Shown in pieces: positions 7,698-57,244 of a DNA stretch of 64,000 bases. Positions within the stretch are counted from its first letter, which is position 1, and every line of letters starts with the position of its first letter. A program made the position numbers and the translations under genes. The stretch is from Kiritimatiellia bacterium (GTDB lineage: Bacteria > Verrucomicrobiota > Kiritimatiellia > CAIVKH01), in the NCBI GenBank assembly GCA_035327305.1, contig DAOLDL010000003.1, positions 76 through 64,075 of the forward strand. The letters are read 5' to 3'. Under the pieces are notes generated by a model. That model did no database searches. It was given only the letters and a program-made list of their open reading frames with translations, and was not told where the DNA came from.

Positions 7698-9767
7698 TCA
7701 CGGTTCCCAGAATGCATCCAGAATGATGATACCCGATCCGGATACTTCAGTTCCCGCCCTCCTCCACTGCACAATATGTTCCCCAGGCGGAAGGGATGGA
7801 ACAGGCACTTCCATCTGAATGAATTGAGCTGTCGGCGCTGAAGTTCTCAACAGCATGTCGTTGCCCATGCTGAACTGAATCGGTGCGCTCATATTTTGGG
7901 GTCCGGGCAGGGCCAGATTCAGCATGAGTCGCCCCGCAACCGGGTTTTCCGTGACATTCACCAAACGAATGCGGGACTGACTGTCCCGCCCGACACGGAA
8001 ATAACGCGTCTCTTGCTGACTTACCTGCTGACCGGATAACTCCCAGCCATCGAAAGCTAGCACGACTGGTCGGTTTTCCGACTTGGCACGCTCGACCCGA
8101 TCCATCCAGGTGTTATAATACAAATCGATGCGGTAGGAGTATTCGGATAATTCTTCGAAGGGCAGACCGGGATAAATACCCCATCGAATCAATTGATGAA
8201 TATATGAAGGATTGCCGAGAATAATATGCCGTGAAAAGTTTTGACTGGGCCATGCCCAGAGACCCTCGGGTGTATTCCAATTGTGGTGAGCGGACTCGAT
8301 AAACGGCGCCTCCGGAAACCGGGTCATAAATTCTATTTGTTTTTCGTGCAGGCGCTGGATGTCGCCGGGAGCGGAACCATGCACAAAAGGAGCGGCCGGC
8401 GGATTATAAGGTGTCGGATAACTTTCACCGACCCAACGGATTTCATAGGCGCTTTCCATTAAAAAAGGCGCACCGGGAGGTAAATTTGCATTGATCCATT
8501 TTGCAACGGCGCCAAACGATGTCGATTTCTCGGTAAGCATCAGAAGTTTAGGTGTAAACATAACGGTATGAATCAGAATTGGAATCCCGGCCACGCACCA
8601 GGCGACGGCGATTTTTGATTTCTGCGAAACACGAATCAAACCGCCCAACCAAAGTCCGATTTGATACAGTCCCTGACCCATAACCATCAACACCAACGGG
8701 GCGACTGGCGAAAAGTACCGGGCGGATAAATATTGCGAGCGACCGGTCGCCCACGTTAACAACAGCAATCCAAGCACGGTAACGATCGCAACATATAAAC
8801 GATCTTTACGCCTTGGATCCGGACGCGCCAGAGAAACGATACCCGAAAGAAGAACAATCCATGCGGCGATATTAAATGGTCGCCATTCGCCGAGAAACAG
8901 TTTGGCCACCACGTCATTCAGGATGATGAAATGCGAGTAATCCGCGCCGCTGGTATGCGATTTGTTAAAAAATACGAATCGCAGGACATAGGGTGATACT
9001 AAAACCAATGATAATGCGGTGACCAGTACGGCATTAAAATAGCCCCGGGATCCCTTATCCCCGTGCTTCAGACTAACCGCCCAAAACAATGCCAAAACGC
9101 CGGCCATTGCAACAACAACCATCAAAGCGCCAAGATGGGAATACAACAACGCGGTAATGAAGATAACCGCCAGTCCGCCATCGCGCCTGAACGAACCGGT
9201 TCCCTCCCGTATGCGGAGGAGCATTAAAACCGCCAGCGGGGTCAACATGATGATTTGCGAATATACGTAGGCTTCGCGCGCGTAATATACCGGAAAGAAA
9301 AACACCGCAGACATGACAGTCACAATTTTGGCGGCGGTTTCATCCAGAACTCTAACGGACAATTTGTAAATAGCCCATACACCGGCGATTCCGAACAAGG
9401 ATGCGGGGAGCCTGGCCAGACCTGCGGTAAAAGGCGTCACCGATTCGGTGAACATTTCAATCATCCGGTAAAACAGATTGTGAATGACAAATGCGAGTGG
9501 CATTTGACCGATAGCAACAATCAGATCCCAACTTGTCCGCCAAACCTGACTTTGCGTAAAACCAGTATGGGCATATTTGAAAAAGCCCAATTCGTCCTGC
9601 CATAGTTCTGCGCGACCCAACCATGCCAAACGAAAAATCGCCGCAACAACCAGGACGGCACAAAGGAAATAATCCACCTGCCGCAGACGCGAAACCGGGG
9701 CTTTCAATTGCGGCTCCGGAGGCTTGGGAATGCCCTTATTACCACCGGATTTTACCTTGGATTTCAT
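7698..9767 (-). CDS. GT-C fold membrane glycosyltransferase (ArnT/PMT family, GT39/GT83-like), 689 aa.
   Basis: More than 10 predicted TM helices. A conserved acidic DE motif in the first periplasmic loop (ELWQDELGFF) and a large C-terminal soluble domain. Divergent from the GT2 polyprenol-P gene. Confidence 0.7.
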   Translation of the reverse strand: MKSKVKSGGNKGIPKPPEPQLKAPVSRLRQVDYFLCAVLVVAAIFRLAWLGRAELWQDELGFFKYAHTGFTQSQVWRTSWDLIVAIGQMPLAFVIHNLFYRMIEMFTESVTPFTAGLARLPASLFGIAGVWAIYKLSVRVLDETAAKIVTVMSAVFFFPVYYAREAYVYSQIIMLTPLAVLMLLRIREGTGSFRRDGGLAVIFITALLYSHLGALMVVVAMAGVLALFWAVSLKHGDKGSRGYFNAVLVTALSLVLVSPYVLRFVFFNKSHTSGADYSHFIILNDVVAKLFLGEWRPFNIAAWIVLLSGIVSLARPDPRRKDRLYVAIVTVLGLLLLTWATGRSQYLSARYFSPVAPLVLMVMGQGLYQIGLWLGGLIRVSQKSKIAVAWCVAGIPILIHTVMFTPKLLMLTEKSTSFGAVAKWINANLPPGAPFLMESAYEIRWVGESYPTPYNPPAAPFVHGSAPGDIQRLHEKQIEFMTRFPEAPFIESAHHNWNTPEGLWAWPSQNFSRHIILGNPSYIHQLIRWGIYPGLPFEELSEYSYRIDLYYNTWMDRVERAKSENRPVVLAFDGWELSGQQVSQQETRYFRVGRDSQSRIRLVNVTENPVAGRLMLNLALPGPQNMSAPIQFSMGNDMLLRTSAPTAQFIQMEVPVPSLPPGEHIVQWRRAGTEVSGSGIIILDAFWEP

Positions 9768-9901: not shown

Positions 9902-12721
9902 ATGAGCAGGTCATTGTTAAAAGCCGTCATGATAAAAATCAGGTATGGCGTGACGAAGCCGGCCATGCTTCTCGCTGTTGCGTGTTCTTTTCCCGTATTC
10001 GCGCAGAATCATTCCATCGAATCCGGCGAGCGCCTGCTTCGCGTAACCGGTGATCGCAATTATCCGCCGTACTGCTTCCTTGACAATGGCATACCCGCGG
10101 GATTTGACATCGACATCATTCGCGCGGTTGCTGAAGCCGTGGATTTCAAACTTGAAATTGAATTAAAGGCGTGGAGTGATGCGCGACACCGCCTTGAAAC
10201 CGGCCGGGCTGATGTCATTCCGGGCATGGCTCGCATTCCATTGCGGGAAGACGATTACGACTTTACGATCCCAACCAAACAGTTGCTTTTCGATCTGTTT
10301 GTGCCGCGGAACTCCGCGATCAAAACCCTGGAGGATGCACGCCACGCCGCCATTCTCATTCAAAAATCCGGCGTTATGTATGACCTGATACGGAGCGAAG
10401 GCATTATAACCAACCTCATACCGGTCGCGGATGCACCGGAAGCCATCACGATGCTGGCCGGCGGGCAATACGACGGAGCCATTGTAAACCTCATGCAGGG
10501 TTATGAGGTATTACAGAAAATGAACGAAAGAAATATTGTACGCCTTCGCTTGACGTTGCCCTCCATTTCCTACTGTATGGCAACCAGAAAAGGCGAGGCG
10601 TCACTCGTTGATCTGCTGAATGTCGGGTTGAACATCATCAAAGCTGAAGGAACCTATCGCGAAATATACGATAAGTGGTTTGGCATTTACGAAGATGAGG
10701 GTGCGAAAATCGAATCGAGATATATTTTCATCCCTCTTGGCGTTATTCTGATTCTATTAGTCCTGCTGTTCTGGATACATCGCACGCTTAAAAATACCAT
10801 TCGCCGGCATACCGCGGAACTGCGGATGATCATTGATCTCATTCCCCACCCGATTTATGCGCGGGACCGGCAGGGAAATTATATACTGGCCAACCAGGCC
10901 ATGGCCTCGTTGTCCGGCATTGAGCTGAAAGACATCATTGGCAAACATTTCACGGAAATTCATCCGCCCGAAAATCATCATGCGGATTATCTGCAGGAGG
11001 ATCGCGAAGTATTCGAAAAGCATATATCGGTCAATATTCCCGAAACACAATACATCGACTCCCGCGGAAGAAAACGCTTCATGCAGGTTTCCAAAATTCC
11101 ATTTCAACAAAAGGACGGAAAAGTTTTATCCGTGCTTTGCGTTGCCGTCGACATTACGGAGTTGATTGAGGCGGAAAATGCGGTGGAGTCGAGCCGCGAC
11201 GACCTGGAAATTACCCTGAATTCCATCGCCGATGGCGTTATCGCAACCAATGCTGAAGGCTTTATCATCCGCATGAATCCCGTGGCGGAAAAGTATACCG
11301 GCATCTCATCCGGTGAAGCAATTGGCCGGCCTATTGCGGGATTGATAAACCTGACAACCAACACCGGCGAACCCGTCCGACTTGACGAAATATTAACCAA
11401 GGCCCATGCCGAAAATGATCTCAACCGATTGATTCGCAATATGGAGATAATCAGCCGGGACGGCTCCAACCGGGATATCGCGTTCAGCTGGGCGCCCATC
11501 GTGGATCGATTCGGCGCCAGCACCGGAATGGTATATGTTATTCGCGATATAACCGAAGAGAATCGACTTAACCGACAGTTGGCGGAAACGCAAAAAATGG
11601 AATCAATCGGTCGGCTCGCCGGCGGCGTTGCCCACGATTTCAACAACCTTCTGACCGGCATCATCGGGTTTACGGAACTACTGAACATAAGCCTTGCCGA
11701 GCATCACGAGTGCCGGACTTACATCAAAGGCATTCTGGAAGCATCCGAACGCGCACGGGATCTGGTCCAACAGCTTCTGACCTTTTCGCGAAAAAATGCG
11801 CGTGAAGTCAATATGGTAAATCTTCATACCGTGATTGGACATGTAATTTCGTTATTACAACATACCATGGACCGCCGCATTACCATCTCCCGCCACCTGA
11901 ACGCCACCCGAACCAATGTCCTGGGCGACCGTTCACAGCTACAGAACGCGATTCTCAATATCGGCGTGAATGCCCGGGATGCCATGCCCGCCGGTGGTTC
12001 GCTTACCATTTCTTCAAGGGACGTAACATTATCCGCGACTGATTGCATTGATCATCCATTTAAAATCAAACCCGGCAATTACATCGAATTGACTGTTACC
12101 GACACCGGGGTTGGCATGGATAAGGAAACGCTTAACCATGCCTTCGAGCCATTTTATACCACGAAAGGGAAAATGGGCGGAACCGGCCTTGGCCTGGCCG
12201 CAGTGTATGGCACCATCAAAGAACATTTCGGTTATATCGATATCAGCAGTAAACCCGGACAAGGCACCACCATCAAACTCGGTTTCCCGACTCAAGGCGG
12301 ACAGCTTATCGCAGATGAAGTGGACGACAGTGAAATGGCGGACCCGCGCGGCAAAGGCACCATTCTGGTTGTGGATGATGAAGCTATTGTCTCCAAAATT
12401 CTGTGCGATTTATTGACCAGCCTCGGTTACCAGACAATGACTGCGGTTAATGGCCGCGACGCCTTGTCGGTTTATCAGGCCAACCGTGATAAAATCGACC
12501 TTGTCGTACTGGACATGATCATGCCGGAATTAAACGGCGAGGAAACCTACCGCGAGTTGAAAAAGATCAATCCGAAGGTAAAAGTGATCATTTGCTCCGG
12601 TTTCATTCAGGATTATGGAGTCGATGATTTGCTGAAACTGGGCATTCTTGACTTTCTGAACAAACCGTTCCGCAAAAGCGAGCTGGCCATCACCATTGCC
12701 AAGGCAATGGCCAACAAGTAA
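9902..12721 (+). CDS. Hybrid sensor histidine kinase: periplasmic solute-binding (SBP_bac_3-like) domain, TM, PAS domains, HisKA/HATPase_c and a C-terminal receiver.
   Basis: N-terminal signal peptide plus an amino-acid-binding-like domain. HisKA H-box GGVAHDFNNLL, ATPase G-boxes DTGVGMD and GTGLGL, and a receiver with VVDDE...VLDMIMP. Confidence 0.8.
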   Translation: MSRSLLKAVMIKIRYGVTKPAMLLAVACSFPVFAQNHSIESGERLLRVTGDRNYPPYCFLDNGIPAGFDIDIIRAVAEAVDFKLEIELKAWSDARHRLETGRADVIPGMARIPLREDDYDFTIPTKQLLFDLFVPRNSAIKTLEDARHAAILIQKSGVMYDLIRSEGIITNLIPVADAPEAITMLAGGQYDGAIVNLMQGYEVLQKMNERNIVRLRLTLPSISYCMATRKGEASLVDLLNVGLNIIKAEGTYREIYDKWFGIYEDEGAKIESRYIFIPLGVILILLVLLFWIHRTLKNTIRRHTAELRMIIDLIPHPIYARDRQGNYILANQAMASLSGIELKDIIGKHFTEIHPPENHHADYLQEDREVFEKHISVNIPETQYIDSRGRKRFMQVSKIPFQQKDGKVLSVLCVAVDITELIEAENAVESSRDDLEITLNSIADGVIATNAEGFIIRMNPVAEKYTGISSGEAIGRPIAGLINLTTNTGEPVRLDEILTKAHAENDLNRLIRNMEIISRDGSNRDIAFSWAPIVDRFGASTGMVYVIRDITEENRLNRQLAETQKMESIGRLAGGVAHDFNNLLTGIIGFTELLNISLAEHHECRTYIKGILEASERARDLVQQLLTFSRKNAREVNMVNLHTVIGHVISLLQHTMDRRITISRHLNATRTNVLGDRSQLQNAILNIGVNARDAMPAGGSLTISSRDVTLSATDCIDHPFKIKPGNYIELTVTDTGVGMDKETLNHAFEPFYTTKGKMGGTGLGLAAVYGTIKEHFGYIDISSKPGQGTTIKLGFPTQGGQLIADEVDDSEMADPRGKGTILVVDDEAIVSKILCDLLTSLGYQTMTAVNGRDALSVYQANRDKIDLVVLDMIMPELNGEETYRELKKINPKVKVIICSGFIQDYGVDDLLKLGILDFLNKPFRKSELAITIAKAMANK

Positions 12722-17983: not shown

Positions 17984-18017
17984 AAAAAAAGCCCCCGGGA
18001 TTAATCGGGGGCTTTTT
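17984..18017. terminator. Bidirectional rho-independent terminator between two converging 3' ends.
   Basis: The sequence gataaaaaaaGCCCCCGggattaatCGGGGGCttttt has a 7-bp GC stem flanked by A- and T-runs on both sides. It lies immediately 3' of the minus-strand gene ending at 18038. Confidence 0.7.
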
Positions 18018-18037: not shown

Positions 18038-21000
18038 TTACGGTTGTACAAGCACCCGGATGTACTTTGATGTATCGGTCATGCTGATACCATCCTGCAA
18101 CTCGGTGGTGGAAAATGCGGTTCTCAACGGTGTGATATCCTGCCATTGCATGGAAGGTCCGGTCACTTCCGGAGAGCTTTGCACACGGTAGTTTCGCTCC
18201 TGAACCGCCTGCCATATGACTTCCACTTCGCCCGCCGAGCCGGTCATGGAAATGATTTCCAGATTGGAGTTGCTGTTGGTCGGATCCGTGCCGGCGAGAA
18301 ACTCCTCGTAATTGGTCATGCCGTCGCCATCCGAATCAACATGTGGATTCGCACCGGTAATACTGCCGAAGTGGAGGAATTCCCACCAATCCGGCAAGCC
18401 GTCACCATCGGTATCCCACGTATCGAGCATTTTGCCGGACGTGTCCGTCTTGTCGATAATCTTGAGGTATTGAGCATGCTGACCGACGTATGGATTTCCG
18501 TTCAGAATCACAACGAAACCGTCATTCATAAGCTCGTTATAGGTCTTATCGACGCCCCATATTTCCTGGGTCGGATTTGGCGATACCAGGTCCACGATAT
18601 TGTAGGAATGTCCGGCGCGGAAGCCGAACCAGTTTACGCCGGGCGTAACATCCACATTCACGTTGTACGTGTCGAAACGGTTGGTCGAAGCATCAATGTT
18701 GTTGTTCACAAACACAAAGACCACATCCTGCGAAGCCGCGCTGACACCGGCGGCCTCGAACTTGGCGAACCCGATCATGTCCGGATTCCAGCCGTTGGTA
18801 CCGGCCAGGAAGTAATTGTTCGGACTGCGCAAGGCCGGGGAAGCCAGACGCGCACGCCCGATGCGTTGATAAAACGCATGCAGTGTATTCGCCCAATCCG
18901 AGCCGTTGGCGGCAAAGTCACCGGCAATATTATTCCAAACATTGGTCATGTGGTTGTAGCGTTTGAAGTTTGGAATTGATTTATTGAAGTTTTCCTCGTA
19001 GCGGGCAAAATTGTTGCCCGGATCAATTCCGCGACCCGTATATTGCGCGGCATCATTCTGAAGTCCGGCTTCCTGGCCGTTAAAGACCATTGGCGCGCCA
19101 TCAAAACCTGAAACGGTCGCATAAGCGTATGCAATCCTCCACTGGTTGTCATGCGGCAGGATTTCATCATGAGATGTCAGATTCAACAGCAACGGTGACA
19201 ACTCAAACGCATTACGACGGTCATCAAGTTCCTTCCAGATCGGGAATGTCTTGGAGTTTGCGCCTGCGTAGTTGAAATAATTGAAGAAATTATCGCGCCA
19301 GAAGAACACGATGTTCTCATTGAGAATATCGAAGTGACGAGCGGAACGGTAGCCAACACCATGACGCTTACTGCCGCCTATTTCACGGAAACCATCCAAC
19401 GATTCCGCCATAAACAGGAAGTCCCATTTAACACTGCGCGTGCGGTTGATGGTGTATTCCCAGAATTCATTGGGCAGGCCCTGCGCAAAATCACAACGCA
19501 AACCATCGATTCCCTTATACGACTCGTTCTTGGGAGTTCCTATGGGATGGCCTGATTTTTCCAGCCAATAGATTGGATAATAAGAGAAGTACTGCCAGAC
19601 TTCGCGGGCATAGACATTCAATGGCTCCAACCGATCTTCCTCAAACAAGTATCGGTTGTACCAGCGACTGCCCCAGGCGAAGTTTGTGTCCACCGGCGCC
19701 TTGGCCACCAGCGCATCGTATACGCCAAAGTGAAAATCAGCGGCATCCGACCATTTCCCGAAGTCAATGCGATCCGGTGCAACAGCGATATCATTGTTCT
19801 GGCCACTTATGTAGTAAGTCGCCTGTTCATCGTAATTGCCCTTCTTGGAGTACCATTGCGGACGCACAACCCGGATCAGGTCGGAGGCGTTCGTGGCCCA
19901 GGCAAACATATCGACGCCCACCTGGCCGATTTCACAATCCCATGCACTGTGATTAAATGTGCCATCCAACATAACCCCTACGCCGGCGGCATCCATGGCG
20001 GCAACAAAAGCCTGAAACTCCGCCATGGCATTGGCGTCGGAAGCAGGGTCACCCAGAACGGTATTGACCCGCCAATAATTCTGCACGGCATAGGGACTGC
20101 CGGGATCGTATGGCAAGCCGGTGGTCGGATCCGTTTCGCGGCCATCCGCGCCAATCGGATGAATCGGTTGCAACCACAACATGTTCATGCCCAGATTATT
20201 GAAGTAAGCGGTATTGATGACATCCGGTTTGTTCGTGTTGACGAGATACATATCCTTGAACGTACTGCGACCGGAGAACGTATCGTTGACCGCTTCCGCA
20301 TAAACCGGATTCAATTCATAGATCGTATTTTCGCGCGCTTTGCGTGGAGAAACCACAACCGCGCAATCGCGACGCATGCCGTTGTCGGTATAATAGGCAT
20401 AAGGTCCGCCATTTACGCGATAACGGGCATTGATGCGGTACGCACCTGTACGATTGACCGGAATCGTTACACTGAACCTTCCACCGCCAATGTCATTCAT
20501 CGGGTAGGCGCGATAATACGTCGTCTGGGTGGCTGGCGTAATCAGGCTCCAATCTTCATCTCCGGGCATTACGGCGAAATCGCGCCGGTTCAAGTTTGAG
20601 AATAATTCCACATCGGAAACGGTATTGCCGACACCGACATTGGGTTCGATGATTACAGTAATGAACTGCTGATCGCCGGCCAATTCATTGATGAAGAAGC
20701 GACGAAGTCCGTAATTCGCATCGTTGGTGCTACCGTTGACCACCGTCCACATTTTCGGACTGCCGCGATCCCAATGCCCATCCAAGTCTTCATCGCGGAT
20801 GCTTTCAAGCGGTACACGTTGAAATTCCATGATGTCCAAATTATTGTCATTGTTCCAAACGAAAGGCCCTTGGGAATGGATACCGCCGCCGTCTGACGTT
20901 CCATAGGCAACTGCGGCAATGTATACAGCCTCGGGGATATAGCCGAAGGCATCAATCAAATCGATTTCACCTTCGAGGCGGTGATTGGGAGGCGTAGGAT

Positions 21001-24000
21001 TGTTGGCGGCGCTTCCCGTTACATTCAACCAGGACTCCCAATTATTCTCACCCTCGCCGGCCAGTATCGGTTTCACCGAGCTGTCAAAAAATGCCAGGCC
21101 CGCTTTGTTCCAGCCCGGTAGAGGAGTCTGGGCATCTCCCAATTCATCCGTGACAAAGATGAAATGGTCATTGGCGCCGGACTGTTCGCTTACACCCCAG
21201 GTTGCCACATAAAGGCGCGTGCCATTCACCGCCGCCCAGATATACATGTCAGAGCCATGGACCAGATAATGATCGCTGTCCGGCAATCCATCGATGTTAA
21301 AGTTGAAATTGGTGACGCCCTGGACATTGGCCTGCCAATCGTTTCCGTTGTTGTTGTCCCACGTTGTGCCCGCGACATCGCGGAATACGAAATCTATCGA
21401 TGTGGCATTTGTCGGCACCGGAATGGTGACAACCCAATTGGTGGATACAGGCGTCATATTGGTCTGATAGACCTGTTGCCATGTGCCCAATGTCTTGGCC
21501 GAGTGACCGACGTGCATTACAACCGGGGAAACATTTTTCAAAGGCCCGTCATTCGGCGAATACGTAACGGTCAGCGTTTGACCGCGAATGGCAAGACCGG
21601 GTGTCCACTGTGCGACCGATTGCTGGGTCGGCGGACCGCCGATAGGTTTGCTGTTGGAGTCATAGATATTGTACTTGTAAATATTGCCTTCGAGATAACC
21701 AGCGTAGACTTCTTCAAAATTCGTAAACCCGTCCCCATCAAAGTCGTTCTGGTCATCCCACTGTCCGCTGTAGAATGTGGAATGATTGTAGGGGTTCAAT
21801 CTGGTCCAGTTTTCGCCGTAATTCGGGATGAAATCGCGGTTGGTGTCGCCCGGCCATGGAGCATCGGGACCGGGAGCGCCATCGGAGTCGATGAAAGGCA
21901 TTTCCACATTGTCCGGAATACCGTCGCCATCGGAGTCGATCGCGTTAATACCGTAAAGATTCATGTTAATCATGCGTGTAATGGTGTTGGTCACACCGGC
22001 ATCGACACGTACCAATTCAAAGAAGGAAGGACCATTCACGAAATTGCCCCAAAGCCGGTTCGTTTCCGCACCGCTACCGTCACGGTAAACGACCTCGCCG
22101 TTGAATACGTTGGTATACCAACCGGCATTCCAGGGTAACTCATATCCGTTCCAGTAAAGGCGAATGCTTGATGGCGAGCCGGAAGCTTGAACTGACGTGC
22201 GGAAGAACGGGAGTTCAATTTGCGCACCTTCCGCGTGATTAAATGTCGCGGACTGTGTATTTGCAAGCACGGTAAACGCACGATTGACAATCGTCGTGTT
22301 GATAATTTGACGCGGACTTCCCCAGTCGGCTTCAGTGGCCACTACCTGCATGGTGTGAACACCGGCGGTCAATCCGTGAATATTGAATTTCCATGAGCCA
22401 CGAATCAGCTGATGTGCGGTCTGGGGCGAGCCGCCATTAAGAGCCACAGTTATGCCATAAGCAGTATAATCGGGATTTTCGATGGAAAGAACATGGTCGC
22501 CGCGGATGGTACCACCATCGGGAATCGAGAGTTCAAGATCCGGTCCGCGTGTATCCACGTAAATGACCTTGGGAAATGTATTGAAGCGGGCGGGAACGCC
22601 GGCGCCTTCGTTGAAGGCGCGGACTTTCACCACGTTCAATCCTTCGGGGACATTTGTGGCATTGATGGAGAAGCTCATGGTCCAGTTGGTGGAATTCACC
22701 TGGTTCATCCGTTCATACCGGCCACTGACAATATCGATGCCCGTGCTGTAAAAATTGGTCGGCGTCAGTTTCGCATTTCCCAGGCCCCACTTCAGCATGA
22801 CGGAATCTACATTTCCACCATCCGGCCGGAATGTTACATCGACCGTTACATTGGTGGAGCGAATGTGCGTAATCTGGCGTGGTTTATCCGGTGCGTGAAT
22901 TCCGCCGGGAACGATCCAGTTCATGGTACCGGCCGGGTTTCCATTGTCGCGGAATGTGACATTGCCGTCTTCCGCCACCTTGGGAGCGTAATAGGCCCAA
23001 CCCTGGCCGTTGTTGCCGGGTACTGTTACGTTGACTTTTGGCGTGCCGCCATCGTTGTATACCGTAATATCACCGGCGCGCCCGGTGTAATCCTTGAGAA
23101 CGGTGCCTACCGGGAAGGAAACGGTAATACCGTTACGGGTCTGGTTGTTGCCGGAATCATTCAGCACAACAAGCAACAAACCTTCACCTGTATTGGGCGA
23201 TCCGTTACTGTTCAAGTCATCAAATCGCTCGTATGCAAAAAAATCGTTTTCTCCCCATCGATCCCATTCACGTCCGCGAGCGAAATTCTGGTGAACGAAA
23301 ACCATATTTCGAACATCCTGAAACTGATCGCCAAGCGCCTGGCTGTCATATCCGGGACGCATCCAAGTGCGGTTGTTATGATCAGCCCACGTCAAATTGT
23401 TGCCGGTGAAATACACCATCGGGTAACCGATATGGCCGAGGATGTATGCGTAGGCCAGATTGATTTTGTTCGGTCCGGCTTCATCATGACCCCAGGCATA
23501 CGTAATACCCAATTCAGGTTGTATACCGCCGCCGCCCATCACCAGGCCGCCGAGATTGCCGTTGCTGAACGCGTCGTAAAGCTTCTGCTTCAGCGGATAA
23601 TCGATAAATCGCATGGGATTGCGGGTATTCCCGGCAATGCCCTGCCCCATATCGCCATACCAGTAATTCAGTTCACCTTGATAACTCAAGATTTCCGCAA
23701 AAATCAAAAGATCATCGCGCAAAACATAGTTGGCGAACATGGTGTCGCGCACATCGTCGGTGCCATCGCGACCACGACGTTGGTCAAAATTCCATTGCGC
23801 TTCGTGCAACCAGCCATTTCCGGGCCATCCGAAAAACTCAAAATCAACATGCTTGGCGGCATCCAGACGCAGACCGTCAAAATCCACCATGTTACCCAGC
23901 CACACAATCCACCGGTCCAAGTACTTGGCCGCGTTTTCTGCTTCATAACCGCTGGGATAATAAGGGTATTTGCTGTACTGGCCGCGATGACGAAGGAACG

Positions 24001-24655
24001 AGACACCATCCACAAAATTCCATCCGGGTGTATTACTGCCACCGGTGAAACGTTTGGGAAGCGGATTGCGCGGGCTGTCTTCCGTGCGAATATCAATCAG
24101 TGTTACCAACTCCTGCCACAGCGTGCCACCGAATCCGTTGCCGGGTGACCATTGGTCCATGCGAGGACCACGACGGTAATTCAATGTATTGGCATGACCG
24201 GGCGCCCACTCAACGTGGAAATCTTCCGGTGCCATGCCGGGATAGTAACGAAAATCCGGCCCGTTGCCATTGTGGTTCATCAAAACGTCAGGAATGATTT
24301 TCAGGTCGATCTGATGTGCATTGCGCACCATTTGACGCAGTTGGCCAAGATCACCGTAGCGTGTGGCATAGGAGCCACGTTGTGGAATTTGCCCCAGATC
24401 GAAGCGGTCATAAAGATTGTAACCGACATTACCCCATTTGGTGCCTTTGCCGGTTGGGCCTTTGTTCGGAGAAGGAATCCAAATACTGTCGTACCAGAAT
24501 TCGCCCACTTCCGGAAGGCGGCGGTAAATTTCCTCCCATTCCGTTTCAAACCATTGAATCATCACCTCGGATTTCGCTTCTTCCGAAGAAAAAAAAGCGC
24601 AAAGCGCCAATGCCAAAACACTCACCCGCAACTTGAATTTATTGAACGCGTACAT
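18038..24655 (-). CDS. Giant secreted two-module GH13 glycoside hydrolase, 2205 aa. Both modules are alpha-amylase/pullulanase-like, with Ca-binding Asp-rich repeats (TSP3/dockerin-like) and multiple beta-sandwich linker domains.
   Basis: The signal peptide begins MYAFNKFKLRVSVLALALCAFF, so the start is placed at 24655 rather than the ORF-track 24760. GH13 module 1 has regions I-IV: DVLMNH, GLRLDAAKH, FAEILS and WGHDE. Module 2 has LDGTFNH, GLRCDFAQ, FMAESLDG and LTSHDE. Repeats include DSDGDGIPD, DFDGDGFTNFEE, DTDGDGLPDWWEF and DSDGDGMTNYEEF. Confidence 0.8.
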   Translation of the reverse strand: MYAFNKFKLRVSVLALALCAFFSSEEAKSEVMIQWFETEWEEIYRRLPEVGEFWYDSIWIPSPNKGPTGKGTKWGNVGYNLYDRFDLGQIPQRGSYATRYGDLGQLRQMVRNAHQIDLKIIPDVLMNHNGNGPDFRYYPGMAPEDFHVEWAPGHANTLNYRRGPRMDQWSPGNGFGGTLWQELVTLIDIRTEDSPRNPLPKRFTGGSNTPGWNFVDGVSFLRHRGQYSKYPYYPSGYEAENAAKYLDRWIVWLGNMVDFDGLRLDAAKHVDFEFFGWPGNGWLHEAQWNFDQRRGRDGTDDVRDTMFANYVLRDDLLIFAEILSYQGELNYWYGDMGQGIAGNTRNPMRFIDYPLKQKLYDAFSNGNLGGLVMGGGGIQPELGITYAWGHDEAGPNKINLAYAYILGHIGYPMVYFTGNNLTWADHNNRTWMRPGYDSQALGDQFQDVRNMVFVHQNFARGREWDRWGENDFFAYERFDDLNSNGSPNTGEGLLLVVLNDSGNNQTRNGITVSFPVGTVLKDYTGRAGDITVYNDGGTPKVNVTVPGNNGQGWAYYAPKVAEDGNVTFRDNGNPAGTMNWIVPGGIHAPDKPRQITHIRSTNVTVDVTFRPDGGNVDSVMLKWGLGNAKLTPTNFYSTGIDIVSGRYERMNQVNSTNWTMSFSINATNVPEGLNVVKVRAFNEGAGVPARFNTFPKVIYVDTRGPDLELSIPDGGTIRGDHVLSIENPDYTAYGITVALNGGSPQTAHQLIRGSWKFNIHGLTAGVHTMQVVATEADWGSPRQIINTTIVNRAFTVLANTQSATFNHAEGAQIELPFFRTSVQASGSPSSIRLYWNGYELPWNAGWYTNVFNGEVVYRDGSGAETNRLWGNFVNGPSFFELVRVDAGVTNTITRMINMNLYGINAIDSDGDGIPDNVEMPFIDSDGAPGPDAPWPGDTNRDFIPNYGENWTRLNPYNHSTFYSGQWDDQNDFDGDGFTNFEEVYAGYLEGNIYKYNIYDSNSKPIGGPPTQQSVAQWTPGLAIRGQTLTVTYSPNDGPLKNVSPVVMHVGHSAKTLGTWQQVYQTNMTPVSTNWVVTIPVPTNATSIDFVFRDVAGTTWDNNNGNDWQANVQGVTNFNFNIDGLPDSDHYLVHGSDMYIWAAVNGTRLYVATWGVSEQSGANDHFIFVTDELGDAQTPLPGWNKAGLAFFDSSVKPILAGEGENNWESWLNVTGSAANNPTPPNHRLEGEIDLIDAFGYIPEAVYIAAVAYGTSDGGGIHSQGPFVWNNDNNLDIMEFQRVPLESIRDEDLDGHWDRGSPKMWTVVNGSTNDANYGLRRFFINELAGDQQFITVIIEPNVGVGNTVSDVELFSNLNRRDFAVMPGDEDWSLITPATQTTYYRAYPMNDIGGGRFSVTIPVNRTGAYRINARYRVNGGPYAYYTDNGMRRDCAVVVSPRKARENTIYELNPVYAEAVNDTFSGRSTFKDMYLVNTNKPDVINTAYFNNLGMNMLWLQPIHPIGADGRETDPTTGLPYDPGSPYAVQNYWRVNTVLGDPASDANAMAEFQAFVAAMDAAGVGVMLDGTFNHSAWDCEIGQVGVDMFAWATNASDLIRVVRPQWYSKKGNYDEQATYYISGQNNDIAVAPDRIDFGKWSDAADFHFGVYDALVAKAPVDTNFAWGSRWYNRYLFEEDRLEPLNVYAREVWQYFSYYPIYWLEKSGHPIGTPKNESYKGIDGLRCDFAQGLPNEFWEYTINRTRSVKWDFLFMAESLDGFREIGGSKRHGVGYRSARHFDILNENIVFFWRDNFFNYFNYAGANSKTFPIWKELDDRRNAFELSPLLLNLTSHDEILPHDNQWRIAYAYATVSGFDGAPMVFNGQEAGLQNDAAQYTGRGIDPGNNFARYEENFNKSIPNFKRYNHMTNVWNNIAGDFAANGSDWANTLHAFYQRIGRARLASPALRSPNNYFLAGTNGWNPDMIGFAKFEAAGVSAASQDVVFVFVNNNIDASTNRFDTYNVNVDVTPGVNWFGFRAGHSYNIVDLVSPNPTQEIWGVDKTYNELMNDGFVVILNGNPYVGQHAQYLKIIDKTDTSGKMLDTWDTDGDGLPDWWEFLHFGSITGANPHVDSDGDGMTNYEEFLAGTDPTNSNSNLEIISMTGSAGEVEVIWQAVQERNYRVQSSPEVTGPSMQWQDITPLRTAFSTTELQDGISMTDTSKYIRVLVQP

Positions 24656-24945
24656 GTTACACCTGTCTACCACGAAGGCTTGTTGGGTTAAAATCACGGT
24701 ATATTTAAACCGTTTTAGCAATGTATGCGTTTGACTCACATTTGTTAAGGAATATTTCAACTTTCATTGTGATTTCTGTTTTTGCTTGATCATGATAGAG
24801 TTGTGATTAAATCGACAAACCATTCTGCAACTTGGGAAATCAAGGGTTGCACTCCAGTAACAATCGTTGCAAAATGCCACGCGACACCCGGATACGCGTT
24901 TCGATCATTCGAGACGCGACAGGGTAATTTTGTTTTTAGGAGTAA

Positions 24946-26331: not shown

Positions 26332-27275
26332 CCGACCGCATGGCGATGGCGTCTGTTCGCACAGCCGTTACCTTATCCGTTTTGTGCCTTTTTCTGGCGT
26401 GCCTGTCATGCTCGCGTGAGCGCCAAGCCCCACCCTACTTCGGAACTCCGACCCGCGGGGAATTTTCGGTCATGTCATACAATCTGCTTCATTTCCGGTA
26501 TATGGATCGAAACCGCGACGGACAGATGAACAATTTTAAACCGGCTGATGAAATCGCGGCATTGGTTGATATTGTCAAACTCTCCAATCCCGACATTCTG
26601 GCCGTCCAGGAACTGGGTGATGCCGCTTCAGCGCTCCGCCTTCAGCAAACATTACGTGATGCAGGACTTCACTATCCCCACCTGGATCATCTATCCGGAC
26701 CCAATCCGCATACATCCCTGGGCATATTGAGCCGCCTGCCCATTGTGAATTCAATACCGCTGACCAATTTATTTTACAGTATCCAAGGCCGAAACCTCGT
26801 TGTGCAACGAGGTTTTCAACAGGTGGATATCCGATTGCCTGATGATAAAGTCATCCGGGTCGTCAATCTCCACTTGAAGTCAAAAGTGTTTCACGAGGCA
26901 GGTCAGACGGAAATGAGACGCAACGAAGCAAGGATTCTGGCCACCCATATCAGAAAATTTCAACGTGAAAACCCAGACATGCCGTTGATCGTCTGCGGCG
27001 ATTTCAACGACAATCACAATTCCGCAGCCATGCGCGAATTATTGGGAAGAGATGACACGGATCTGCAGTTTCTGCCACTGGTGGATCGCGATGGAGATGG
27101 ATGGACCCACTTTTTTGGACGCGACCACATTTACTCGCGTATAGATTACATTTTAGTCAATTCGGCCATGAAGCAGAGGTGGGTCGAGAGCAAGTCCGGA
27201 ATAGTACGCGACAACCGCACGTACAAGGCTTCGGATCATCGCCCTATCTTCGCCACCTTTAACGCGACAAACTGA
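26328..27275 (+). CDS. Endonuclease/exonuclease/phosphatase (EEP) family lipoprotein.
   Basis: Signal peptide with lipobox LACLSC. EEP motifs SYNLLHF, DILAVQE, and C-terminal GDFNDN...SDHRPIFATF. Start chosen at the internal ATG at 26328, which overlaps the upstream stop. Confidence 0.7.
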   Translation: MTDRMAMASVRTAVTLSVLCLFLACLSCSRERQAPPYFGTPTRGEFSVMSYNLLHFRYMDRNRDGQMNNFKPADEIAALVDIVKLSNPDILAVQELGDAASALRLQQTLRDAGLHYPHLDHLSGPNPHTSLGILSRLPIVNSIPLTNLFYSIQGRNLVVQRGFQQVDIRLPDDKVIRVVNLHLKSKVFHEAGQTEMRRNEARILATHIRKFQRENPDMPLIVCGDFNDNHNSAAMRELLGRDDTDLQFLPLVDRDGDGWTHFFGRDHIYSRIDYILVNSAMKQRWVESKSGIVRDNRTYKASDHRPIFATFNATN

Positions 27276-27603
27276 CCGCCGGATTGATTTGCAGGCGGTA
27301 AAAACGCTCTTCGCCGGGAGGTACCCGGTCCGTGTACGTCAATGTACGGCCGGTTCCCCGGATATAATCGAATCCCGGCAACACCTTCCAGGGCGATCTC
27401 GCACTGCGGGTGTGGTTGTACAGTACCGTGTAGGCAAAATCAGGGTCGGATTCCCATGACAGTGACACAACATCGGCCGAGCGGGTCACAAAAAGACGTG
27501 TTTTACTTAATGGAACATCTTCCAACGTTACGCGTTGTTTGGCGCATCCGCACGCCACAATACCGGCCAGAACAACCAACAACAAAAATTTGCCCGCGTT
27601 CAT
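27259..27603 (-). CDS. Small lipoprotein of unknown function.
   Basis: Signal peptide with lipobox VACGC, 114 aa, no recognisable motif. Confidence 0.45.
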   Translation of the reverse strand: MNAGKFLLLVVLAGIVACGCAKQRVTLEDVPLSKTRLFVTRSADVVSLSWESDPDFAYTVLYNHTRSARSPWKVLPGFDYIRGTGRTLTYTDRVPPGEERFYRLQINPAVSLSR

Positions 27604-27631: not shown

Positions 27632-28414
27632 TCACTTGATCGGATGAGCTTCAGACTCGACTGCGTCGTCAGGTTTCACGGCTGTTGATTTTTCAAGCGA
27701 CTCGACCAGATTATCGAGATCATTGATGATTTCTTCGGAAGATGCCGGTGTTGTGGTCCGCACCGTGGGATACAAATCAGAGGGGCGTTCAACCGGCGCA
27801 ACCGGAGGCAATGTCGTTGAAGAAGGATTCAGCGATTCACGAGTTGTCCGCACCGGCGCCGGTTGATAGATGGATGCATCTCCGCCGCGCAATGGACCGG
27901 TCTGGTCATACCAGCTTGAACGTCGCAATGGCGCGGCTTCATCCTCAAGCGTTAAATTGTAGCGTTTGGAAAACCATCTCCACTCATTTCTGTTCCACTT
28001 AAAGATGCGCCCGAATTCATTAACCAGGTTGGCATTATCCAATTGGCGAATGTAAACCAGTTCAGGCACCCAGGCCAGGGCTTCGCGAATGGAAGCCGGC
28101 AAGAGGTCATCGCCACCGATCAGGACTGCGCGGGTGGGAGATTTTTTCAGAAAGCTCAACTCACGCAGATCATGCATACCCAATTGCACCCATGAGTTGC
28201 CGTCCCAGCCATGAATCAGCGGGTTTAGCGTCGTTGCGTCCCCTTGATAAGAAATCAGCACGGACGGACGCTTGTCGATTACATCAAACATGACCTGCAT
28301 CACGGAAAAACGTGATGGCGCTACAATCAATGTAAAGTCGCGCCCGCGGGCAAACGTTTCCGGCACGGCAACCATGCCAAGCAACCCCAACGTCATGATC
28401 AATGTCTTCTTCAT
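27632..28414 (-). CDS. Secreted hypothetical protein.
   Basis: N-terminal signal peptide MKKTLIMTLGLLGMVAVPETFA. P/T-rich C-terminal tail. Confidence 0.45.
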   Translation of the reverse strand: MKKTLIMTLGLLGMVAVPETFARGRDFTLIVAPSRFSVMQVMFDVIDKRPSVLISYQGDATTLNPLIHGWDGNSWVQLGMHDLRELSFLKKSPTRAVLIGGDDLLPASIREALAWVPELVYIRQLDNANLVNEFGRIFKWNRNEWRWFSKRYNLTLEDEAAPLRRSSWYDQTGPLRGGDASIYQPAPVRTTRESLNPSSTTLPPVAPVERPSDLYPTVRTTTPASSEEIINDLDNLVESLEKSTAVKPDDAVESEAHPIK

Positions 28415-38801: not shown

Positions 38802-41800
38802 TTAAAAACGCGCTTTTAAACCAATTTCCCATGTTTTCTCCTCGTACGTCGGCATTTCCATGCGCGTAAAGCCGCCGAAACACTGAACTTCGCCTCCAAA
38901 ATCATACGCAAGCCGGATCGTGATATTCCAAACATCCTCCCACTCCGTTGCGGTTTCCCGGGCTATTCCCCATTCGGTGTTCAATTCGTAGGAAATCAAT
39001 CCGCAGTTTCCCGTGAAGGCGCCCAGCAATGCATGATATTCCAGTTTTTCTGGAGAATAGTATTCGGGAACCGTATCATCGTTACGCTCCTGACGCACTT
39101 TGTAACCAGCGCCAACGTACGGACTATCCATTAAACGATACACGATTTGACCCGCGAGCTTCACGGCGTCATTGTCATCCGTACGTAGCAGATAGTTTCC
39201 GCGGGCATGTGCATCAAATTGATTCAGCATGATTGAATTGACTGACCATGAAAAAGCGTCGTACCGGATATTTTCGCGGATCGCTTCGACTGTCGGTACA
39301 ATGTCGCGTTGGTAGCCCAGTTCCCAGCTTCCATTGAGCACCCGGTTTTCTGAATGTAAAAACAATGACCCGACAGCCTGGTTTTTCGGTTCGTTATCGC
39401 TCCACTGTATCCACTGCAATTCACTGCGTAACCGGCGTTCGTTTGTGAAAAACCAAAGCCCCTCCATGCCCAAACGAAAACCATCCACATCACCGAGCGA
39501 TGTGCGGCGATGGTTACTATGTTCCGCCCGCGCACCCAGTCGAATATCTTCCTGTATGTGCCAATGTCCGGCAACGCCAAACCGATTCGCCGATCGATCA
39601 TCGGTATCATGGATGTTATCGAAGTTGACGACCAGTTGCGGCCTCAACTCCTTTTCAGCCTTTTCCAACAGACGAAAAACCTGATCCTGATCAAGCGATC
39701 CGGCCTGCGCCGCTGTACGGAGCTTCGATAAAGCGGCGGGCAGATCCCCTCGTTCGAGCGAGTTTGACCCCCAATCATACATGAACAAAGAAGGATCAAC
39801 GCCAGAATCAGACACTTCCTGATATAATGCATGTGCACGGGCATGCTGACCTTGCTGATTCAACCGGCGCGCCATTTCCACCTTGGCCTGAATAACCGGA
39901 TTGTTGGATCTCAAATACTCATTGATGTCATCTGCGCCATCCAACATCACCAATTCCATGGTTCGAGGCGGCGGAATGGCGCGGAATGGAATTCGCATAC
40001 GGTCATATCCCGGAGTTACAAATCCATGTTCATCCAAAGCCAGGACATAATCAAAATACTTGCGCGTCACATTTCGCAATATATCCACCTCCTCCTTGCC
40101 AGGATCGTGCGACATATGTCCACAATCTCCATGAGGATAAACAAACATGCGTGGAATACCTTCCGGTATCGAACGGGCGGCATCGCCGAGCCATTGGTTT
40201 AACCGCGCTTCCATTTCCGCAACGGTTTCGACGGATTCATCGGATTTGATGATTCGATGGATAAGCGGATTACCCAAAAAGGCCGATGCCACGCCCCTGG
40301 TATTTGAAATGTGCTCCGGCCCGGTGGTGGCGACCAACCATCGACCGCTCTGTTGCAGATCGACAAATGATGTACGCGAAGTTTCACGAGGAAGCATGTG
40401 GCGAAAAACTGATACATCCACAGCAAGAACAACTTTTACCTGATGCTTTGCCATAAATGCATCCAATTCAGGCAACACATCGGGAGAGGGATGCACCAGC
40501 ACCATGATGACTTGTTGCCCTGGATTGGCCACAGCGTGCTCCAACTCAAAAGGAAATATAAATGTGTAACCTGCCGCCAGCAACTGACGCATGTGGTTTT
40601 TCAATTGCCCGACATGATTCTGCCCGTCCATTTGACACACCGACAAGGATTTGTATGCCAATACGGGAACTGCGGATTCCGGTGCGAGTTGCGCCAAGGG
40701 TTTCAAGCGCCGGATCGAGGCTGGAATGTTTCGACCATGTGCCTTATTCCGAATAACAGCGCCCCCTTCAGTATTGTTGATGATATCGTCGGCTCGCGCA
40801 ACCAATCGATTCATCCCGGCATGGGCGGGATTATGTTTCAGATATTCTGATGCGTATGCAAAAGCGGCCGGCCAATCAAACAGACCTTCGGCAATTTCCG
40901 CACTGACTCTGTATAAATCCGGAGTTGGCGAAGATTCAATTCCGGCCTCGGCCAACGATGCCGCGACTTCATAATCCCCTTTAGCTCTTGCCAACTCAAT
41001 CGCCCTCGAGAATAATTGATGGGCAGGGAACTTCCGCAAGCCCAGCTCTATCAAATAAATCGCTTCATCGTGACGGCATGCTCGCACCAATGCATCGGCG
41101 GCAGTCTGCAGGAAATACACGCCATCATGGACGTTGCGTACCGACTCCGTCCAAAGCGCAAATATTTCAGGCTCACGCCCCAGACTGACCAGCATGTCGG
41201 AAAATTTATCCGCGCCGAAAGTCCCGCGTGACCGCAGTCTTGCACCCCACCAATTTACCTGGGACACCGCTTCCGCATAACGTTCATCCGCCATCAACAT
41301 GTCAAATAACTCCAGCCGCAAATCCGGCTGACCGGAATCGCGATCGAGACTTTCCATGACAAACATAACCGCATCGGAAATTTTGCCCACTCGACGGGAC
41401 TGCATTGCCTTTATTCTATAATGGACAGCCGGGGGAACAGGCGCCAACAAGGCGTTCATGAAGAAATCGTCAACATTTCTCGGGGATTCAAAACGGGGCG
41501 CCAGCCTGGCCGCCTGAAGCCATGCGGAACTGGCAGGATCCCTTGCAATAATCCTCCGGTACAACGTATAAGCAGTCTCCGGCTCGCTGTTCATGGCAAA
41601 TTCGTCGGCAAATCCCAGCAATAACGTGGTTATGAGTGGGTCATAGTAGGGTTGATCACCGACATAGCCGCGCATGATTTCACCGAGTGCCTGATTATCG
41701 CGACATATCGCGGCAATTTCATAAAGTAGATCCACTTCAACATGGTCAAATGTCGGCAGGTCGCCCGGTGTAAGGGCAGGAAGTTCATGCGACCAGGCAT

Positions 41801-56353: not shown

Positions 56354-57244
56354 GTGGTTCATGTATCAAAAATCATTCGCACACGACATCCGGCATGGCG
56401 CTGGCTCCGATTGGCCGGGGTGTTGGTATTAGCGGCCTGGTTGTTGCCGGGTTGCGTAAACCGTATGTTCTATTATCCGGATACTCATGTCTACCGCACC
56501 GCAAAGGATTTCCCCTACCCGGTAAGAGAAATTTTCTTTGATAGCCTGGACGGAACCGAACTTCACGGATGGCTTCTCATCTCGCCGGCCACCAATCCAT
56601 TGGGAACCGTGGTACATTTCCATGGCAATGCACAGAACATTTCCGCACACGCTGATTTTGTCGATTGGTTGCCCCGCGAAGGGTATCATGTATTCATTTT
56701 TGATTACCGCGGCTTCGGCAAGTCGAAGGGTCGACCCACCCGCGAAGGTGTTTACATGGATGGCGTGGCGGCAATGATGCAAGCCATGCGTTTACCCGGC
56801 ATTGAGTCCAACCGGCTGTTCGTTATCGGCCAAAGTCTCGGCGGCGCCGTGGCATTGTCGGTTGCGGGGAGTCATCCCGAATTTGACATAAAGGCAATGG
56901 TCATCGATTCCTCCTTTTATTCCTACCGTGGTATTGTGAAAGACAAGTTGAAAGACATGCCGTTATTATCATTGGCGGCTCGTCCGCTATCAAAATGGCT
57001 GACCAGCGACACGCATTCGCCGCATCTCAATATCGCTCAAATACAGGCTCCGGTCATGTTCATCCACGGCACACGGGATTATGTGATCCCGCATCATCAT
57101 TCGGAAATGCTGTATGAATCTGCCCGTGAGCCGAAGGAATTGCTCTTGATTGATGGCGCGGCTCACATCAGTGCGTTACACTCCCATCGCTTTGACACCG
57201 CCCCCCGCATAATCCGATTTTTCACCGAACAAATTCAGCCATGA
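56354..57244 (+). CDS. Alpha/beta-hydrolase fold protein (membrane-anchored/lipoprotein-like).
   Basis: Nucleophile elbow GQSLGG, HGN oxyanion motif, acid and His (FIHGTRD) downstream. N-terminal signal/anchor with LLPGC. Confidence 0.7.
   Translation: MVHVSKIIRTRHPAWRWLRLAGVLVLAAWLLPGCVNRMFYYPDTHVYRTAKDFPYPVREIFFDSLDGTELHGWLLISPATNPLGTVVHFHGNAQNISAHADFVDWLPREGYHVFIFDYRGFGKSKGRPTREGVYMDGVAAMMQAMRLPGIESNRLFVIGQSLGGAVALSVAGSHPEFDIKAMVIDSSFYSYRGIVKDKLKDMPLLSLAARPLSKWLTSDTHSPHLNIAQIQAPVMFIHGTRDYVIPHHHSEMLYESAREPKELLLIDGAAHISALHSHRFDTAPRIIRFFTEQIQP

Follow-up and report, generated by a model that had tools for sequence, protein, structure and literature searches.

Enzymes with two GH13 catalytic modules on one polypeptide have precedents: ApuB of Bifidobacterium breve and the enzyme of Bacillus sp. 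KSM-1378 are amylase-pullulanases of Actinobacteria and Bacillota, respectively. Both are cited as dual-GH13 examples in PMC3709733, and the separate domains of the Gardnerella alpha-amylase-pullulanase are each active (bioRxiv 10.1101/2022.10.19.512974). Here we analyze a gene for a 2205-residue protein with two GH13 modules, located at 18038-24655 on the minus strand of a 64,000-nucleotide stretch of a Kiritimatiellia bacterium genome (assembly GCA_035327305.1, contig DAOLDL010000003.1; the whole stretch is referred to below as the window). We consider it likely that the product is a Sec-exported, multi-modular alpha-glucan (starch or glycogen) depolymerase with two different, catalytically competent GH13 modules.

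The two-domain alpha-amylase-pullulanases resemble this protein in being one exported chain (about 1700-2000 residues) with an N-terminal GH13 amylase, centrally placed starch-binding carbohydrate-binding modules (CBMs) and another module of GH13. Their second module, however, is a pullulanase (GH13_14-type, with CBM41/48), whereas that of the protein studied here is like the GH13_48/49 clade and comes with neither CBM41 nor CBM48. They are anchored by LPXTG, a membrane segment or SLH in monoderm hosts, whereas the present host is a diderm member of the Planctomycetes-Verrucomicrobia-Chlamydiae (PVC) group. The accessory parts also differ, being in our case thrombospondin type 3 (TSP3) repeats, a domain that we call domain X, and an FN3-like terminal domain. 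The GH13 amylases of the Ruminococcus bromii amylosome are likewise multi-modular and extracellular, with CBMs and calcium-binding repeats near the C-terminus, and two of them, Amy10 and Amy12, were among the fold matches. They bear dockerins, whereas our protein has no detectable dockerin or cohesin family, and TSP3 is a different family of calcium-binding repeat. Two GH13 heads on one chain are therefore not new in themselves; the PVC family differs in the type of module 2, in the host and in the accessory parts. The original prediction, made from the letters of the stretch, had called a single polypeptide of this kind unusual. That description is not supported, as the architecture is that of a conserved PVC family and dual-GH13 amylase-pullulanases have already been characterized. 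Literature searches found no study of the dual-GH13 PVC family, nor of a PVC C-terminal domain.

Reading frame, export signal and the two GH13 modules

The coding sequence is complete and uninterrupted, running from an ATG at 24655 to a stop codon at 18038-18040 (2205 residues plus stop) on the minus strand, on which all features of the protein given below also lie. The predicted boundaries were right, and the coding strand is the minus strand; reading 18038-24655 on the plus strand gave a stop-ridden translation. Every peptide that had been quoted (GLRLDAAKH, FAEILS, GLRCDFAQ, FMAESLDG, DSDGDGIPD, DFDGDGFTNFEE, DTDGDGLPDWWEF and DSDGDGMTNYEEF) was recovered in the translation. The open reading frame (ORF) free of internal stops extends over 18038-24760, and a longer start, a TTG at 24760, was considered; the position of the signal peptide, the N-termini of homologues and an independent gene call argue against it and for the ATG at 24655, which is preceded by a Shine-Dalgarno-like AGGTG. 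The independent call, made on the source contig (ENA ERZ27240676, 150 kb), gave the same 2205-residue product. Over the whole protein, Pfam found Alpha-amylase in two stretches, TSP3_bac in three, CBM53 and Alpha-amy_C_pro.

A search of about 5.8 billion proteins yielded 225 homologues, well above what chance would give, and the figures that follow come from the best 120 listed. These share 49-83% identity with the query at 93% coverage or more, all but one are 2172-2334 residues long, and they originate from independent JGI, ENA, NCBI and Logan assemblies. Catalytic columns were read from an alignment of the query with these 120 homologues (121 sequences), in which all segments of the protein are conserved, linkers included. 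Relatives were present in 124 genomes in a scan that covered one genome per species. All of these are metagenome-assembled genomes, labelled Kiritimatiellia, Lentisphaerae/Victivallales, Luteolibacter, Akkermansiaceae, Chthoniobacterales, Methylacidiphilales or generic Verrucomicrobiota. Because all 124 species genomes with relatives belong to the PVC group, the dual-GH13 family is restricted to this group. Strong purifying selection acts on this exported protein, on its two GH13 active sites and on its starch-type CBM throughout a group of phylum rank.

A type I signal peptide with n-, h- and c-regions occupies residues 1-29 (24569-24655; MYAFNKFKLRVSVLALALCAFFSSEEAKS, then EVMIQWF), with the cleavage context lying between AKS and EVMIQWF. 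Conservation over these 29 residues is 12% and rises sharply at the invariant E30. The leaders of the homologues are unrelated hydrophobic sequences that end in AQA, AKA or VRA just before the invariant EVM(L/I)QWFETEW, and a lipobox-like motif occurs in only 11 of the 120. The type I signal peptide and the A-x-A motif placed directly before EVM(L/I)QWFETEW in homologue N-termini support the export of the protein, which had been predicted to be secreted. The intact ORF, the signal peptide, the family-wide architecture and conservation of catalytic residues, and the assignments of the CBM and the TSP3 repeats are firm.

GH13 module 1 (domains A and B, residues 30-493; 23177-24568) matched Pfam PF00128 with an E value of 3.7e-14. 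Its domain C follows (residues 494-560; 22976-23176), where Alpha-amy_C_pro matched residues 494-536 just under its cutoff (20.2 against 21 bits); for several homologues, too, a precomputed match to this family exists. Region I reads DVLMNH (D123, N127, H128), region II GLRLDAAKH (R263, the nucleophile D265, K268, H269), region III FAEIL (the acid/base E321) and region IV WGHD (H390, D391). GH13 regions I-IV are thus all present, and none of the ten catalytic or signature residues of the module varies in the 121 sequences. The same is true in the family of GYNLYD and SPYAV, the beta2-loop motifs that contain Tyr, and invariant columns make up 15% of the module.

The best solved-structure matches of module 1 were Termamyl-like amylases, namely the Pyrococcus woesei enzyme of GH13_7 (1mwo, E 1.3e-18) and B. 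licheniformis BLA of GH13_5 (1vjs/1bli, about 2e-18). Module 1 could be aligned with these enzymes in regions I and II, in the motif GYxxYDxxDLG and in the Alpha-amy_C_pro domain, which they have in common. In comparison with them, however, module 1 reached E values of only about 1e-18 over partial stretches and has extra insertions between regions II and III. NCBIfam PRK09441-type models scored far under their cutoff (131.8 against 516). With enzymes of GH13_5 and GH13_7 as its nearest solved structures, module 1 is predicted to be a divergent GH13_5/_7 ('Termamyl-like') member.

Module 2 starts with an N-terminal beta-sandwich (N-domain, residues 1306-1440; 20336-20740), drawn from model strands with pLDDT of about 50-86. 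Its mean identity is 67%, Pfam gave no match to it, and its best Foldseek matches, obtained with a low-confidence model, were GlgE and TVAII, two enzymes in which an N-domain likewise precedes GH13. The catalytic part (domain A with a large domain B, residues 1441-1945; 18821-20335) matched PF00128 at 3.8e-06 when this half was searched alone. It is followed by a beta-sandwich domain C (residues 1946-2070; 18446-18820; model strands at residues 843-964 of the fragment, pLDDT 66-86). Region I reads MLDGTFNH (D1564, N1568, H1569), region II GLRCDFAQG (R1720, C1721, the nucleophile D1722), region III FMAESLDG (E1751) and region IV LTSHD (H1829, D1830), and conserved sequence region (CSR) VII is PMVFNGQ, ending in G1860 and Q1861. 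GH13 regions I, II, III, IV and VII and the catalytic triad are all in place, and the key residues are invariant in 121 of 121. No part of the protein is under tighter constraint than module 2, in which 22% of the columns are invariant. A local hhalign comparison of module 1 with module 2 gave E 8e-06 and set regions I, II, IV and VII in register.

In profile searches the module 2 family matched best, among solved structures, two GH13_48 enzymes, Thermotoga neapolitana AmyB (4gkl, E 7.4e-14) and a Lactobacillus plantarum enzyme (3dhu, E 1.1e-09), with CSR-VI, I, II and VII in register. Beyond the conserved regions similarity is low, and domain B of module 2 is about 100 residues longer than that of 4gkl, with some 150 residues between regions I and II as against about 50 there. 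Subfamilies GH13_48 and GH13_49, the latter including Haloarcula japonica MalA, share a Cys directly before the nucleophile and a GQ that ends CSR-VII (PMC11239784). Both features occur in module 2, where C1721-D1722 and G1860-Q1861 are invariant. GH13_49 is further marked by [WY]-[GA] ending CSR-II, an Asp before the acid/base Glu and a Glu third in CSR-IV, and some of its members also have glucodextranase-like binding domains and, at the N-terminus, domains whose function is unknown (PMC11239784). At the three diagnostic places module 2 has instead Q1725-G1726, A1750-E1751 and T1827 (NLTSHD), each of them invariant or close to it. The MalA model of NCBIfam scored 29 bits against a cutoff of 875. 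For GH13_48 the signature is L-[DN] at the end of CSR-V (PMC11239784). The likely CSR-V of module 2, WSDAADFH, would end in F-H rather than L-[DN]; its register is tentative, as the enlarged domain B lies outside the 4gkl and 3dhu alignments. Since the shared signatures are present and those specific to GH13_49 are absent, module 2 is placed near the GH13_38/_48/_49 clade and probably lies outside the defined subfamilies. It is a candidate for the founding member of a new GH13 subfamily. The characterized members of GH13_38, _48 and _49 are maltogenic amylases, alpha-amylases and alpha-glucosidases.

A pullulanase or other debranching GH13 (GH13_11 to _14) was rejected for module 2. TIGR02104 scored 21.6 bits against 504.5 and TIGR02100 26.2 against 640.9, the matches of pullulanase and GlgX models were local, around region I only, and neither CBM41 nor CBM48 was found by Pfam in the whole protein or its halves. 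The second activity had been predicted to be of pullulanase type. This does not hold, because the GH13_48 maltogenic amylases 4gkl and 3dhu are nearest and the pullulanase and GlgX models match weakly and locally.

The prediction of two complete GH13 modules withstood an alignment check for lost catalytic residues, as all 20 tested catalytic or signature positions of both modules are invariant in 121 of 121 sequences. Because of this invariance both modules are probably active. In the mechanism that we propose, both would act by the retaining double displacement of GH13, with D265 and D1722 as nucleophiles, E321 and E1751 as acid/base and D391 and D1830 as stabilizers. Module 1 (residues 30-560) would be an endo-acting, GH13_5/_7-type alpha-amylase that cuts alpha-1,4 links. 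Module 2 (residues 1306-2070) would be a second enzyme acting on alpha-1,4-glucan, at chain ends or on oligosaccharides, like its GH13_48 relatives. We infer the substrate and this endo/exo division between the modules, and likewise the roles given below to domain X and the C-terminal domain.

Several points weigh against a depolymerase with two competent modules. For all members of the family, the activity of the two modules is a prediction from sequence. The barrel of module 2 was poorly modelled by AlphaFold2 (pLDDT below 50 over much of it; residues 1105-2205, from a 19-sequence alignment), which makes the active-site geometry tentative. Its region II lacks the canonical Lys-His and has Q-G instead, and the module is distantly like transferases, namely GlgE (4u33, E 1.9e-05) and the T. 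maritima maltosyltransferase (1gju, E 1.2e-03). The host is diderm, so that a Sec signal alone is no proof of export past the periplasm. Lastly, the neighbours are unrelated housekeeping genes, and no sugar transporter or other alpha-glucan gene lies within the 64 kb.

The Q-G of region II and the likeness to transferases would fit a module 2 that is mainly a transglycosylase, similar to a 4-alpha-glucanotransferase or maltosyltransferase, in a protein that remodels alpha-glucans, for example by disproportionating the oligosaccharides that module 1 sets free. Like GLRCDFAQG, region II of GlgE and of the T. maritima enzyme is without Lys-His, both enzymes are among the sequence matches, and GlgE stands first in the Foldseek list, in which GH13 enzymes with N-domains (GlgE, TVAII) reached 1e-12 to 1e-10. 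We nevertheless regard this explanation as unlikely. The closest sequence relatives are the hydrolases 4gkl (7e-14) and 3dhu (1e-09), which have the same CD-A/V type of region II; the Foldseek order depends on a low-confidence model; and GlgE requires maltose 1-phosphate, a substrate hardly to be expected outside the cell. A depolymerase with two hydrolytic modules remains our preferred reading.

Binding modules, calcium repeats and the C-terminal domain

Between the two catalytic modules lies a series of non-catalytic segments. A conserved region directly after module 1 (residues 561-900; 21956-22975) has a mean identity of 48% with 22 invariant columns, and gave scattered weak Pfam matches in a few homologues (Big_7, EMC7 beta-sandwich, CarboxypepD_reg). 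It presumably consists of about three Ig-like beta-sandwich domains. A central TSP3-type repeat region follows (residues 901-1000; 21656-21955), with DSDGDGIPD, DSDGAPGPD and DFDGDGFTNFEE. With a mean identity of 73% it ranks above every other segment, and its invariant acidic residues include D907, D909, D911, D915, D967 and D971. A second TSP3 pair lies near the C-terminus (residues 2076-2125; 18281-18430; DTDGDGLPDWWEF to DSDGDGMTNYEEFLAGTDP), where the best TSP3_bac stretch is 2107-2127; this region also matched weakly the TSP3-like part of NCBIfam Amuc_1099_fam.

The TSP3_bac family (PF18884, DxDxDGxxDxxE) scored 47.5 bits against a cutoff of 25, in three stretches, and was found in 18 of 19 family members for the central segment and in 14 of 19 for the C-terminal half. 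The Asp-rich repeats are accordingly of the bacterial thrombospondin type 3, as had been proposed, and are predicted to bind calcium. The description of them as dockerin-type fails: Pfam detected no dockerin family at E<=1 in the whole protein or its halves, and no genome-wide cohesin search was made.

A starch-binding module of CBM25/CBM53 type is placed at residues ~1010-1110 (21326-21628), where Pfam matched CBM53 over residues 1029-1089. The match is marginal in the query (27.7 bits against a cutoff of 27.6). CBM53 was found in 17 of 19 homologues (best E 8e-11) and CBM_25 in 8 of 19, and among solved structures the family profile of the region matched 2laa and 2c3v, both of them CBM25 modules (E 0.004-0.016). 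We assign the segment to CBM25/53 and predict that it binds starch. Next comes domain X, an all-beta domain of about 190 residues (residues 1112-1305; 20741-21322; AlphaFold2 pLDDT 75-89, strands throughout). It gave no Pfam match and no solved-structure sequence match, even with a 47-sequence profile. Its counterpart in a GH57 protein encoded beside the dual-GH13 gene of another locus (L023) is 38% identical (E 3e-30). A likeness to glucodextranase-C or CBM9-like domains is a possible lead.

The chain ends in an FN3-like beta-sandwich of 78 residues, the C-terminal domain (CTD; residues 2128-2205; 18041-18274). Its AlphaFold2 model, from 38 family sequences, has a pLDDT of 89 and five to seven strands. 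The family motif is W...NY...W...TA...(R)FYRVxVxP, and the query copy reads KYIRVLVQP. That the final ~80 residues had been left unassigned agrees with Pfam and NCBIfam, neither of which has a model that matches the last 80-120 residues. A structural comparison of this end with sorting domains had been proposed; against the PDB, Foldseek returned FN3 domains only, at non-significant E values (>=0.03) with TM-scores of about 0.5-0.6, and neither a T9SS nor any other sorting domain emerged. We rejected a T9SS CTD, PEP-CTERM, LPXTG or SLH on the grounds that there is no family or fold match and no hydrophobic terminal helix, the protein ending in KYIRVLVQP.

The occurrence of the CTD elsewhere was examined with a profile search of 1.84 billion representative proteins, which gave 3666 at E<=1e-3. 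Copies are often in tandem with a period of about 83 residues, up to 22 matched stretches per protein. Of 141 top proteins, 119 have their last copy at the very C-terminus, where it carries the motif (Q)RFYRVxxxP, and all 24 single-copy matches among the top 150 are C-terminal. The same FYRV motif is carried by 194 of 229 internal copies. Because internal tandem copies carry it, the FYRV motif is the last strand of the fold and no dedicated terminal signal, and a dedicated, cleaved sorting signal is weakened as an interpretation. In the flanks of related loci the CTD ends GH57 giants, a stand-alone module 2 paralogue, and LamG, BspA-type leucine-rich repeat (LRR) and PATR proteins, and it also terminates cadherin-like and MBG-domain proteins (representatives P0121-P0269). 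Small representatives that consist of the CTD only are mostly C-terminal fragments. A homologous-protein search with the CTD alignment returned nothing at E<=0.01, the domain being short and the database huge. The CTD is an undescribed FN3-like module that typically terminates exported PVC proteins. Tethering of the enzyme to the cell surface through it, as the prediction had suggested, is a candidate role.

A single CTD-type domain also occurs nearby in the window. The ORF at 27259-27603 (minus strand; 114 residues) has a lipoprotein-like leader (MNAGKFLLLVVLAGIVAC...) followed by one 'RFYR' domain (HMM E 3e-06 to 3e-08). It was called by the ENA gene caller and gave no Pfam or NCBIfam match. 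A syntenic counterpart is present in the closest relative (L002), and similar small ORFs are found at L002:4977-5345 and L051:18110-18439.

A more far-reaching idea, which we hold to be quite unlikely, is that the TSP3 pair and the CTD form a PVC-wide display or retention cassette that keeps exported proteins at the cell surface (dual-GH13, GH57 giants, LamG, BspA-LRR, PATR). Single-copy lipoprotein-like proteins such as that of 27259-27603 could be the anchor partner, giving an undescribed cell-surface 'amylosome' independent of cohesin and dockerin in which module 2 founds a new GH13 subfamily.

We infer that the final location of the enzyme is secreted or surface-held, not periplasmic. A periplasmic enzyme acting on imported maltodextrins or the cell's own glucan, rather than on external starch, would agree with the type I Sec signal peptide as the only demonstrable export signal, and with the finding that Pfam, NCBIfam and Foldseek gave no known outer-membrane sorting or anchoring signal. 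The build of the protein, however, is that of a typical extracellular polysaccharidase, with 2200 residues, a CBM25/53 of the raw-starch type, long calcium-stiffened spacers and FN3/Ig-like domains, and its CTD is common to LamG, BspA-LRR and PATR proteins, which are surface-like in appearance. These features make a periplasmic role distinctly improbable. For an enzyme released or held outside, the CBM25/53 and probably domain X, lying between the modules, would hold it on insoluble, granular or branched glucan. The calcium-binding TSP3 repeats would serve as rigid, calcium-stiffened spacers, and the terminal FN3-like domain would end a chain that acts beyond the outer membrane, often with a GH57 partner.

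Integrity, variants and genomic surroundings

Two further explanations concern the integrity of the protein. That one module is catalytically dead and persists as a carbohydrate-binding remnant is very improbable, as none of the 121 sequences departs, in either module, from the nucleophile, the acid/base, the stabilizing Asp, the two His, the Arg or the context of the stacking Tyr, and nothing was found in its favour. An assembly chimera or a frameshift fusion of two genes is effectively refuted by more than 120 collinear full-length homologues from independent assemblies, the occurrence in 124 genomes, an identical protein on three contigs, a uniform composition (GC flat at 0.51-0.53 over gene and flanks) and linker domains conserved across the supposed junction, with nothing to set on the other side.

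Some relatives depart from the common architecture. One protein lacks module 1 (P0214, 1625 residues), and a stand-alone module 2 paralogue carries FN3, TSP3 and the CTD (L080:14937-18437, 1167 residues). Such variants suggest that module 2 with the accessory domains is the core, to which module 1 was added at the N-terminus. In addition, a subgroup of about 2300 residues (e.g. P0060-P0109, L009, L029, L062) is about 100 residues longer and more divergent at its C-terminal end.

A terminator-like hairpin (17986-18017, minus strand) was found by consensus scan about 20 nucleotides past the stop codon, with a 12-bp stem, 7 G-C pairs and a T run; the total of terminator-like sites in the region, from the consensus scan only, is not above that of shuffled sequence. 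Upstream of the ATG, within a 290-bp intergenic region, a candidate weak sigma-70-like promoter (24720-24748, minus strand) matches at 9 of 12 positions, no better than shuffled sequence does. On account of the hairpin after the stop and the 290-bp upstream intergenic region, the gene looks monocistronic by these consensus scans. Three ORFs lie antisense within the gene, on the plus strand at 22412-24148 (578 residues), 21164-22138 (324 residues) and 19730-20599 (289 residues). The ENA gene caller called none of them; most likely each is a by-product of the long frame that is coded on the other strand.

In the window the gene stands alone among unrelated genes, which encode a hybrid sensor kinase, phosphoglycerate mutase, an amidohydrolase, a LysM protein, an RmlD-like reductase, an AhpC-like protein, and TPR and Exo_endo_phos proteins. 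A starch-utilization locus around it was rejected, since the neighbours are unrelated and the window holds no GH57 gene. At 12 or more related PVC loci, the dual-GH13 gene adjoins one for a GH57 protein of about 1100-1470 residues (e.g. L023:5760-9719, L052:14595-18731, L047:1010-5407, L012:4359-8522 and, on the minus strand, L021:3831-7784). The two genes form a conserved pair. Taken together, these neighbours have CBM53/25, TSP3 repeats and the CTD of the dual-GH13 enzyme; a match to domain X came from the protein of L023. Because of these shared parts, the company of GH57 points to an extracellular toolkit for degrading alpha-glucans.

Several other genes of the window were noted. Some 5 kb past the downstream end of the amylase gene and on the other strand (9902-12721, plus), a 939-residue hybrid sensor kinase combines a periplasmic solute-binding domain (SBP_bac_3) with PAS, HisKA/HATPase and receiver domains; no link between it and the amylase was established. 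A same-strand run at 38802-46940 (minus) comprises genes for a PilZ-domain family-2 glycosyltransferase (45270-46940), a 640-residue protein without Pfam match (43351-45273) and a 1521-residue TPR protein (38802-43367), and resembles an exopolysaccharide synthase operon controlled by c-di-GMP. The gene for a C-5 cytosine DNA methyltransferase (48104-49234, minus) overlaps the start of a downstream 317-residue ORF (47166-48119, minus), and the two may be a restriction-modification pair. An 800-residue protein (57241-59643, plus) has a putative glycosyl hydrolase domain, GHL10/DUF4015, in its C-terminal half, and an N-terminal part of about 480 residues without assignment. The ORFs at 7698-9767 (minus, 689 residues) and 27632-28414 (minus, 260 residues) gave no Pfam match at the thresholds used.

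Meaning for the PVC bacteria

The advance is incremental, because two GH13 heads on one chain were already known; it would be more if the terminal cassette turned out to be a novel system of display. Domain X, the N-domain of module 2 and the FN3-like CTD have no description in Pfam or NCBIfam and are shared with the co-located GH57 enzymes. Defining them would improve the annotation of carbohydrate-active enzymes in PVC bacteria.

The PVC bacteria in question (Kiritimatiellia, Lentisphaeria and Verrucomicrobiia) are major and poorly cultured degraders of polysaccharides. The dual-GH13 enzyme could show by what means these diderm bacteria retain enzymes of such size on the cell surface. Conserved in more than 120 genomes at species level and endowed with two invariant active sites, this 2200-residue enzyme is probably what they chiefly use against external starch or glycogen.

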